A DNA stretch of 60,114 nucleotides, counting the filler, from Bonamia ostreae (Eukaryota), in the NCBI GenBank assembly GCA_040357525.1. It is 10 parts of 10 records of this genome, joined end to end, with 100 filler letters (N's around TTAATTAATTAA, not from the genome) between each part and the next. Parts side by side here need not be neighbours in the genome. Positions count along the whole stretch, not along the records: positions 54,265 to 60,114 come from JBDODL010000160.1; 9 more parts are not named here. One strand, 5' to 3'. The position numbers and the translations under genes were made by a program. Within the stretch, counting starts at the first letter, position 1. Each line of letters opens with the position of its first letter. The notes under the pieces were generated by a model. It worked only from the letters and a program-made list of their open reading frames with translations. It was not told where the DNA came from and made no database searches. Positions 56,256-57,710 of the stretch are shown one piece after another.

Positions 56256-57710
56256 ATGTCCGATAGTGAATACGACAATATTTCTGAAGACTTCGAAGAC
56301 AACGACGGAGAATCAAAAGGAAGAGTTACTGATTTTTCATGTTTTTGCCAATTGAAATAAAGCTGTAAAACCAGTTGTGATCGATAATGGCTCTGGAATG
56401 TTTTAACTCCCAATAAAAGGGTCAAATGTGGGATTTCTGGCGAAAAGGCGCCGAAATGTGTATTCCCGTCTATTATCGGCTATCCCCACGAACACTATTC
56501 CAGTGTTATGTCTGGGAACCAAGTAGAATGCTATCTGGGCGACGAAGCCCAAGAAAAAAGAGGAATGCTCTCCTTGAAATACCCGATTGAACATGGAATA
56601 GTTGGCAACTGGTACATTTAAGATATAATTAAGCTAATTCCATATGTGGGAATTAAGCTCTCATTAACTAAATCCTAAAATTATAAGGGATGACATGGAA
56701 AAACTGTGGAAATACACGTTCGAAGACCAACTTCGAATATTGCCGGATGAACAACCTGTTCTTCTGACCGAAGCTCCGATGAACCCGAAGAGGAACAGAG
56801 AGAAAATGACTCAAATCATGTTTGAAACTTTTGAAGTGGTTTTAAATTTCAAGATTAGCCTGCGATGTATGTCGCGATCCAAGCGGTTTTGTCTCTATAC
56901 TCTTCTGGAAGAACAACGGGAATCGTCGTCGACAGTGGGGACGGCGTCACCCACACCGTGCCGGTTTATGAAGGATTTTCAAGTTTGCGAACAAATTAAA
57001 ATCGACGACTAAAAAAATTTCAAAGTCCCACATGCGGTCAAAAGAATAAATCTCGCGGGGAGAGACGTGACGACATATATGATGAAAGTTTTAACCGAAT
57101 CCGGGCACGAGTTCACCACATCCGCAGAAAAAGAAATTGTCCGCGATATCAAAGAAAAACTTTGTTATGTCTCTCAAAGTCTTAATTTTACAAATACTTT
57201 AAATCGGCAGTGACAAAACTAATTGCCAATTCAACTCAAAATTCGAAAATAGATTACGAAGAGGAACTCGCCAAAAAAGGCTCCGACCTCGAAAAAGAAT
57301 ACGAACTCCCAGACGGACAAATAATAATGATCCGCCAAGAACGCTTCAAAGCCCCGGAATGTTTGTTCCAGCCATCTCTTTTGGGGAAAGAGTACTCTGG
57401 AATACACAAATTGACGTACGAGTCGATCATGGAATGCGACATCGACGTGAGAAGAGATTTCTTTGAGAACGTGGTGTTGTCGGGAGGCACGACGATGTAC
57501 AACGGTCTTTGCGAGCGGCTGAGTAAAGACTTGGCTGCGTTAGCACCGCCTTCAGTGAACGTGAAGGTGTTCGCTCCGCCGGAAAGAAAATATTCGGTGT
57601 GGATCGGAGGGTCGATTCTGTCCTCTTTGTCGACTTTCTCGACGAATTGGATAACGTATGACGAGTTTTTGGAGTCAGGGCCTTCGATCGTTCATAGAAA
57701 GTGCTTCTAA
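56256..57710 (+). CDS. Divergent actin, 6 introns
   Basis: [63 protein letters not shown] and terminal [10 protein letters not shown]. Confidence 0.96.

Follow-up and report, generated by a model that had tools for sequence, protein, structure and literature searches.

Bonamia ostreae is a haplosporidian (Ascetosporea, Rhizaria) and a notifiable parasite of flat oysters. In this work we analysed a stretch of 60,114 nucleotides (nt) of its genome (NCBI GenBank assembly GCA_040357525.1), hereafter the window, along which all positions are counted, and focused on the introns of the genes that it bears. The window contains approximately 30% G+C, carries eukaryotic genes on both strands and is nuclear B. 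ostreae DNA, as two of its spliced gene models match NCBI proteins of this species. Pfam searches on single open reading frames (ORFs) identified an M16 peptidase, METTL5, a proteasome subunit, PRP38, a DDX10-like helicase, a GBP-like GTPase, a dUTPase, Sec61-gamma, PAP2, a choline kinase, SDHA, a TLC protein, the condensin Cnd1, a ribosomal S15-family protein, NAD kinase (NADK), a Trs85-like TRAPP subunit, an actin-bundling (ABP34-like) protein, BRCT and RCC1 proteins, RPL21 and actin.

Ten of these genes, spread from 6.5 kb to 57 kb, were found to contain 32 supported introns (Table 1), all of which begin with GT and end with AG on the coding strand (32/32), the aligner and the gene models having accepted GT..AG boundaries only. 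Support was drawn from RNA contigs, from Pfam or PDB coordinates continuing over the junction, from spliced alignment of homologues and from identity to NCBI proteins. Removal of the introns restores actin, SDHA, NADK, METTL5, Sec61-gamma and, with full identity, two B. ostreae proteins deposited at NCBI, and retention would lead to a premature stop in 24 of the 25 introns that were modelled. Each kb of coding sequence holds 3-6 of them. No donor in the set of 32 resembles the long conserved motif of minor (U12-type) introns. We conclude that these segments of nuclear genes are genuine introns of the spliceosomal GU-AG type.

The actin gene (ATG at 56256, stop at 57710) encodes an uninterrupted actin of 399 amino acids once six introns are taken out, and the Pfam Actin profile continues from exon to exon (profile positions 16-72, 74-123, 124-163, 179-244 and 252-410). 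If intron 1 is left unspliced, the frame of exon 2 runs into an intronic TGA with no ATG between. RNA evidence was provided by Logan contigs of three public runs, referred to as X1, X2 and X3, on one stretch of the window. Skips of 20 nt were not reported by the aligner, and introns 2 and 4 were therefore read from loose ends of 12 letters. An X1 contig on 56420-56506 carries 12 extra letters identical to 56388-56399, and in two X1 contigs letters equal to 56826-56837 abut the exon starting at 56859. Since these loose ends equal the upstream exon ends, both introns are absent from the RNA. No joint or loose end was listed in the contigs, whose uncovered parts are uninformative, at three junctions, those of actin introns 1 and 5 (the latter of 43 nt) and of RPL21. 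Two further observations were made on this gene. An X2 RNA contig ends at 57736 with a tail of 24 A, 26 nt past the actin stop, indicating a very short 3' untranslated region. At 56793-56832, X1 contigs diverge from the window and continue for up to 141 letters of actin-like coding sequence, which suggests that another locus of the genome carries at least one actin paralogue that is expressed.

For SDHA, located on the minus strand (31409-34461), 150 relatives were fetched with one exon, and seven long ones were aligned to the DNA using a spliced aligner requiring GT..AG only. Removal of 11 introns yields an open frame of 622 amino acids, with minority alternatives at three junctions. For intron 8 an alternative donor (GTTTTG) would give an intron of 146 nt at 32044-32189; both forms leave the ORF open, and the 155-nt form scores slightly better against the homologues. 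This single gene combines long introns with introns of about 20 nt, its 593-nt intron with a GTTTTT donor lying beside tiny ones.

Two genes could be compared with deposited B. ostreae proteins, whose models in NCBI already include such tiny introns. One long exon of the TRAPP gene is 97% identical to the hypothetical protein MHBO_000819 [Bonamia ostreae], and after removal of six short segments the Trs85-like product is identical to an NCBI protein (P0001) at 679 of 679 residues. Within the last annotated exon of this gene lies a further segment of 19 nt, GTTTTT..TAG and 100% A/T (45317-45335, plus strand). The donor-neutral gene model described below splices it, extending the ORF to 45502, the NCBI protein reads through it, and the segment may represent either an overlooked intron or a different end of the gene. 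The ABP34-like gene equals NCBI MHBO_000821 (P0152, 456 amino acids), which starts at an ATG immediately past the 19-nt intron at 47773-47791; this intron thus lies upstream of the NCBI model start. A distant homologue (P0153) and our own model extend further upstream (47770-47978, minus strand), crossing two more tiny introns, 47773-47791 and 47869-47889 (GTAACT donor), so that the deposited model may be truncated at the N-terminus.

Six other genes provided one intron each, NADK, METTL5 and Sec61-gamma being the strongly supported ones among the single examples. In METTL5 the upstream exon corresponds to residues 4-108 of human METTL5 and the downstream exon matches from residue 121 (E 1e-10). 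The two Sec61-gamma exons match Pfam SecE at 2-19 and 24-50, both under the curated cut-off. The downstream exon of the GBP-like gene matches GBP, and its upstream exon has no Pfam match and no meaningful PDB match. The downstream exon of RPL21 matches eL21 weakly (residues 120-141, E 0.056), the top six matches all being eL21.

An earlier note on this DNA, made from the sequence alone, had listed ten tiny segments, claimed that conserved proteins are restored by removing them, and counted nine of 11 SDHA donors with T at +3. All ten segments proved to be GT..AG on the coding strand and of the lengths it gave. The restoration was found for actin, NADK, METTL5, Sec61-gamma and SDHA, and all seven single examples give an open frame. 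Its SDHA count was reproduced, with nine GTT donors here (ten with the alternative donor of intron 8), and RNA contigs remove 56400-56419 and 56839-56858, two of the segments that it had listed, in addition to the 76- and 74-nt actin introns.

Table 1. Supported introns of the window, with the evidence for each (alignment counts for SDHA refer to the seven long relatives)
Intron	Position	Strand	Length and ends	Evidence and remarks
METTL5	6537-6556	-	20 nt, GTTTTT..AAG	Frame restoration; human METTL5 alignment
PRP38	8646-8667	+	22 nt, GTTTTT..TAG	Frame restoration; short ATG exon joined to exon from PRP38 profile position 2
GBP-like	18483-18502	+	20 nt, GTTTGT..TAG	Frame restoration; P-loop-like motif spans junction
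Sec61-gamma	26196-26217	-	22 nt, GTTATT..AAG	Frame restoration; Pfam SecE
SDHA 1	34162-34187	-	26 nt, GTTTAA..CAG	4/7 alignments; Pfam FAD_binding_2 1-54 and 57-122 on flanking ORFs
SDHA 2	33348-33940	-	593 nt, GTTTTT..AAG	3/7 alignments, 2 others with different ends
SDHA 3	33177-33198	-	22 nt, GTTGCC..TAG	5/7 alignments
SDHA 4	33075-33098	-	24 nt, GTTTAC..AAG	7/7 alignments
SDHA 5	32788-32849	-	62 nt, GTTATT..TAG	7/7 alignments
SDHA 6	32441-32592	-	152 nt, GTTTTG..AAG	6/7 alignments
SDHA 7	32359-32379	-	21 nt, GTTTAT..CAG	5/7 alignments
SDHA 8	32044-32198	-	155 nt, GTCATT	2 votes vs 1
SDHA 9	31850-31872	-	23 nt, GTTTGG..AAG	3/7 alignments; one alternative acceptor
SDHA 10	31707-31779	-	73 nt, GTTTTC..AAG	3/7 alignments
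SDHA 11	31553-31585	-	33 nt, GTAATT..TAG	2/7 alignments; one alternative acceptor
NADK	40042-40063	-	22 nt, GTTCGC..AAG	Pfam NAD_kinase_C 1-40 and 41-125 across junction
TRAPP	43280-43302	+	23 nt, GTTTTC..CAG	Spliced alignment of P0001
TRAPP	43557-43576	+	20 nt, GTTTTG..TAG	Spliced alignment of P0001
TRAPP	43684-43704	+	21 nt, GTTTTG..AAG	Alignment of P0001; in-frame TAA inside
TRAPP	44186-44205	+	20 nt, GTTTTA..TAG	Spliced alignment of P0001
TRAPP	44299-44319	+	21 nt, GTTTTG..AAG	NCBI model only; retention leaves frame open
TRAPP	45137-45167	+	31 nt, GTAATT..AAG	Spliced alignment of P0001
ABP34-like	47773-47791	-	19 nt, GTTCTT..AAG	Frame restoration and one distant homologue (P0153); weak support
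ABP34-like	47612-47632	-	21 nt, GTATAT..TAG	P0152 and P0153; in-frame TAA inside
ABP34-like	47496-47524	-	29 nt, GTTATT..AAG	P0152 and P0153
RPL21	54361-54383	-	23 nt, GTTTGA..TAG	Frame restoration
Actin 1	56341-56362	+	22 nt, GTTTTT..AAG	Frame restoration; links ATG exon (56256) to exon 2
Actin 2	56400-56419	+	20 nt, GTTTTA..AAG	Frame restoration; X1 contig
Actin 3	56612-56687	+	76 nt, GTACAT..AAG	GT..AG joints in X1 and X3; Pfam Actin 72/74
Actin 4	56839-56858	+	20 nt, GTTTTA..TAG	Pfam Actin 123/124; X1 contigs
Actin 5	56983-57025	+	43 nt, GTTTGC..AAG	Frame restoration; Pfam Actin 163/179
Actin 6	57179-57252	+	74 nt, GTCTTA..TAG	GT..AG joints in X1 and X3; Pfam Actin 244/252

Twenty-one of the 32 introns measure 19-26 nt (mode 20, with six introns of this length), none is shorter than 19 nt and the remaining 11 range from 29 to 593 nt. 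Donors of the 32 introns read GTT in 26 cases, GTA in four and GTC in two; 20 continue as GTTT and 13 as GTTTT, and GTAAG occurs in 0/32. T is found at +3 in 26/32 (81%), at +4 in 22/32 (69%) and at +5 in 21/32 (66%), G at +5 in only 5/32. As a background we used the 5027 GT dinucleotides on both strands of the window, of which 46.3% read GTT, 22.2% GTTT and 10.9% GTTTT; the donors exceed it in all three cases (binomial p 5e-5, 1e-6 and 1e-5, respectively). Compared with the share of T in intron interiors (0.39), T is enriched at +3, +4 and +5 (p 1e-6, 6e-4 and 2e-3), and is not at +6 and +7. The last three exon bases of the 32 introns show no consensus. Acceptors read AAG in 18, TAG in 11, CAG in three and GAG in none of the 32, and a pyrimidine tract is lacking, A making up 52% and pyrimidines 44% of positions -3 to -14. 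Inside, the introns are A/T-rich with degenerate sequences, and no branch-like consensus motif was found in the 22 introns of at most 35 nt. The donor also varies with length, GTT being present in 20 of the 21 tiny introns (at most 26 nt) and in six of the 11 longer ones (Fisher p 0.011), the latter being near background. The U-rich donor is thus mainly a property of the tiny class, and the U run would be close to obligatory there only.

These features were examined independently by a simple gene model run on 27 loci of known strand, which used codon usage and GT..AG only and left donors unweighted. Of the 30 introns verified at that stage it recovered 24, and it proposed 86 further ones. The 76 predicted introns in other genes include 45 GTT and 31 GTTT donors (p 0.016 and 2e-4), counts that are diluted because there are false positives among them; the acceptor GAG occurs in six of these 76 unverified introns. 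Under a flat length prior of 12-40 nt, the commonest predicted length is 20 nt, with 16 introns of which 15 begin with GTT; there are 38 predictions of 19-23 nt vs four in an antisense control, and six vs 14 at 12-18 nt. The tiny class therefore has a sharp lower edge, with an onset at 19-20 nt. Two other approaches were rejected. Counts of frames rescued by GT..AG segments compared with all other dinucleotide pairs, whether window-wide or between neighbouring ORFs, did not make GT-AG stand out; they are uninformative because, close to an ORF overlap, removing any segment of suitable length restores a frame. A whole-window gene finder with neutral splice signals either missed short exons or linked up separate genes and strands, producing false introns by the hundred.

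Length and donor do not by themselves define these introns. The exons of actin, TRAPP and SDHA (5109 nt) contain 72 segments of 19-26 nt with GT..AG ends, which are unspliced in the models; 22 start with GTT and six with GTTT. The presence of 22 unspliced exonic GTT segments vs 14 real tiny introns in the same genes indicates that length plus GTT is insufficient to mark an intron. The 14 real ones mostly have an AT content of at least 0.75 and 0-2 G inside, unlike the exonic look-alikes.

Most of what the earlier note had said of splice signals agrees with these counts. This holds for the predominance of GTT and GTTT, the rarity of GTAAG and of +5 G, and the general claim of a rewritten splice code, seen here as a GUUUU donor, no exon-side consensus, no +5 G, no pyrimidine tract and a 19-26-nt class. 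Three of its claims stand in part. The acceptors do follow A-rich sequence, with AAG prominent and no pyrimidine tract, but the GAG acceptors that it had included are missing from the verified set. Tiny introns are found across the window, but as one class that coexists with introns of 29-593 nt. Its suggestion that length helps to define introns agrees with the sharp onset at 19-20 nt, but is incomplete in view of the exonic look-alikes.

How might such introns be recognized? Splicing itself would be the ordinary two-step reaction carried out by a major-type spliceosome, and the 5' site would be recognized otherwise than by pairing with a standard U1 5' end. Set against GUUUU, the latter (ACUUAC, as quoted in bioRxiv 10.1101/2022.06.08.495308) would pair at +1 and +2 alone, with no help from the exon, and therefore U1 would be changed or would not be the main reader. 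The most likely alternatives would be that the U1 5' end has co-evolved, which is the case in Entamoeba, and/or that the U6 ACAGA box reads the site directly. With this box, U at +2, +4 and +6 could pair with A and U at +3 could wobble with G; U at +5 would be mismatched unless the box differs. Intron definition, acting over a very short stretch that is AT-rich and G-poor, would separate real sites from look-alikes. We consider it probable, with appreciable room for doubt, that these genuine GU-AG introns have GUUUU donors read by a co-evolved U1 and/or by the U6 ACAGA box, together with short AT-rich intron definition.

A bolder version of this proposal, possible but in our view doubtful, is that two modes of 5' splice-site recognition operate in one intron-rich genome, introns of at most 26 nt needing the U run at +3 to +5 and longer ones being free to use GUA or GUC. 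Since the U1 and U2 particles would not both fit on 20 nt, the reader of the U run would in this case be U6 ACAGA, with or instead of it a U1 that is re-tuned or missing. If true, the splice code would have been transformed without intron loss, although atypical donors usually go together with intron-poor genomes.

Several points weigh against our preferred explanation as a whole. The mechanism is one that we infer, and Rfam found a single tRNA-Val gene and no small nuclear RNA (snRNA) gene within the 60-kb window. For six of the 32 introns a restored frame is all, or nearly all, of the support, and the one at 44299-44319 stands on the NCBI model alone. The RNA evidence consists of assembled contigs, one run being only guessed to be RNA, and shows removal for just four introns of one gene (4/6 in actin). 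The 43-nt actin intron is kept in a single X1 contig (56954-57037), with no joint listed. The single verified tiny intron with A at +3 (GUA) is that at 47612-47632, the donor contrast between tiny and long introns depends on 11 long ones, and the donor-neutral models are error-prone, with at least six wrong introns (three in actin, three in SDHA).

The best-surviving alternative is that all snRNAs are standard, that U1 tolerates mismatched donors and that proteins read the U run past GU; among them could be U-rich-binding helpers of U1. This is a serious rival because, according to a preprint, U1 has stayed standard in a number of groups whose donors are atypical, namely Saccharomycotina (69 species), Giardia, Trichomonas, Thecamonas and Micromonas (bioRxiv 10.1101/2022.06.08.495308), which also weighs against our preferred reading. 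The Ascetosporea genome paper likewise places the loss of splicing genes on the branch of paramyxids and mikrocytids, not on Bonamia. Nevertheless, GUUUU leaves only two pairs, fewer than GUAUGU, and no consensus on the exon side compensates for them, and we regard a tolerant standard U1 as unlikely.

Outright loss of the U1 small nuclear ribonucleoprotein (snRNP), with the tri-snRNP (U6, U5) picking the 5' site directly, appears decidedly improbable. It would follow what seemingly happened in mikrocytids, as only U2, U4 and U6 snRNAs and 17-19 spliceosomal proteins have been identified in Mikrocytos and Paramikrocytos (PMC10245619), and an intron of 20 nt would leave little room for the U1 and U2 particles together. 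However, a U1 that was not found in relatives is not one proven absent, Bonamia is described as less reduced than mikrocytids in the Ascetosporea genome paper, and it has many long introns with degenerate rather than uniform sequences.

Base composition of a T-rich genome is a very improbable source of the GTT and GTTT excess. GTT already makes up 46% of all GT and intron interiors contain 38-40% T, but the 81%, 63% and 41% observed for GTT, GTTT and GTTTT exceed the expected 46%, 22% and 11% (p 5e-5 to 1e-6), and the enrichment over the intronic share of T covers +3, +4 and +5 and not +6 and +7. To assembly errors, frameshifts or pseudogene damage we give practically no credence: nothing was found in their favour, and the segments are all GT..AG, are absent from RNA contigs and yield spliced products equal to deposited proteins, with domains continuing across them.

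Some other features of the window were noted. The tRNA-Val (AAC), the sole Rfam match in the 60 kb, is located at 25322-25394 on the minus strand, directly upstream of the dUTPase gene. At 55058-56017 (minus strand) lies a gene for a proline/lysine-rich tandem-repeat protein with units of approximately 15 and 25 residues, split by a 100-N gap; X1 and X2 contigs cover it, and a T run at 55034 corresponds to a minus-strand poly(A) site. Pairs of 44-N runs occur approximately every 6 kb (5952-6051, 12002-12101 etc.) and look like masking rather than biology, and four 100-N runs resemble scaffold gaps. N runs interrupt the 3' end of RPL21, the repeat-protein gene and the stretch after actin.

Older papers on haplosporidian actin genes may mention small introns. 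In the searched literature, which did not extend to supplements and older subscription papers, we found no description of this length class or of the GUUUU donor in B. ostreae. The Ascetosporea genome paper mentions for it only 'canonical introns', about two per mRNA, and the transcriptome paper contains no occurrence of 'intron' or 'splic'. Ultra-short introns are already known from mikrocytids, Stentor, nucleomorphs, myxobolids and Dicyema, and GUUU-type donors from Entamoeba. What is new is the combination of both in an intron-rich haplosporidian and the association of the U run with the short class. Ultra-short introns elsewhere have been described with canonical-like or reduced 'GTa' donors, and atypical donor consensus sequences have so far been linked to lineages that have lost most of their introns (bioRxiv 10.1101/2022.06.08.495308). 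With GUUUU where GUAAGU is the usual start, the splicing machinery of B. ostreae probably reads intron starts in an unusual way, and Bonamia offers a natural test of the minimum sequence and space that a spliceosome needs, and of the co-evolution of snRNAs with their targets. In practice, gene prediction and read mapping for this species will fail unless a minimum intron of about 19 nt and a GTT-type donor model are allowed.

Relatives with comparable introns are the mikrocytids Mikrocytos mackini and Paramikrocytos canceri, which have few introns (224 in 179 genes), all of 16-17 nt and strongly conserved along their sequence, and whose spliceosome is much reduced, only U2, U4 and U6 snRNAs having been found (PMC10245619). 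Bonamia shares with them the class Ascetosporea, a narrow size range at the lower length limit and probably a 5' site recognition off the standard U1 scheme. It differs in having 3-6 introns per kb, degenerate interiors and introns of up to about 600 nt beside its 19-26-nt class. Stentor (15-16 nt) and chlorarachniophyte nucleomorphs (18-21 nt), as cited in PMC10245619, also show a narrow length class near the physical minimum; as far as that citation goes, theirs is essentially the only class, whereas 11 of the 32 Bonamia introns are of 29-593 nt. The myxobolid myxozoans and Dicyema japonicum are parasites too, with median intron lengths of 22-27 nt; their 5' and 3' motifs are reduced, a pyrimidine tract is lacking and A residues before AG are weakly conserved (PMC13644364). 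Unlike Bonamia, in which +3 is U, these animals have the reduced 5' motif 'GTa'.

With regard to the donor itself, the nearest parallel is Entamoeba, for which the preprint reports GUUUGU(U) donors, a U1 reading ACAAAC and an improved pairing with U6 ACAGA through U at +3 and +4 (bioRxiv 10.1101/2022.06.08.495308). Both organisms have U in place of A at +3 and +4, a tendency to U at +6/+7, AT-rich introns and a weak branch motif. Entamoeba, however, is described there as intron-poor with a near-universal donor (88-98%, GUUUGU itself 88-90%) and G at +5, whereas Bonamia is intron-rich, with GTTT in 63%, U at +5 in 66% and G at +5 in 5/32. A preference for U at +4, found in 22/32 Bonamia donors, has also been tied to the loss of METTL16 and SNRNP27K in Saccharomycotina (PMC10581693); in these yeasts the switch concerns +4 only, at GUAUGU-type sites, whereas in Bonamia +3 and +5 are U as well.

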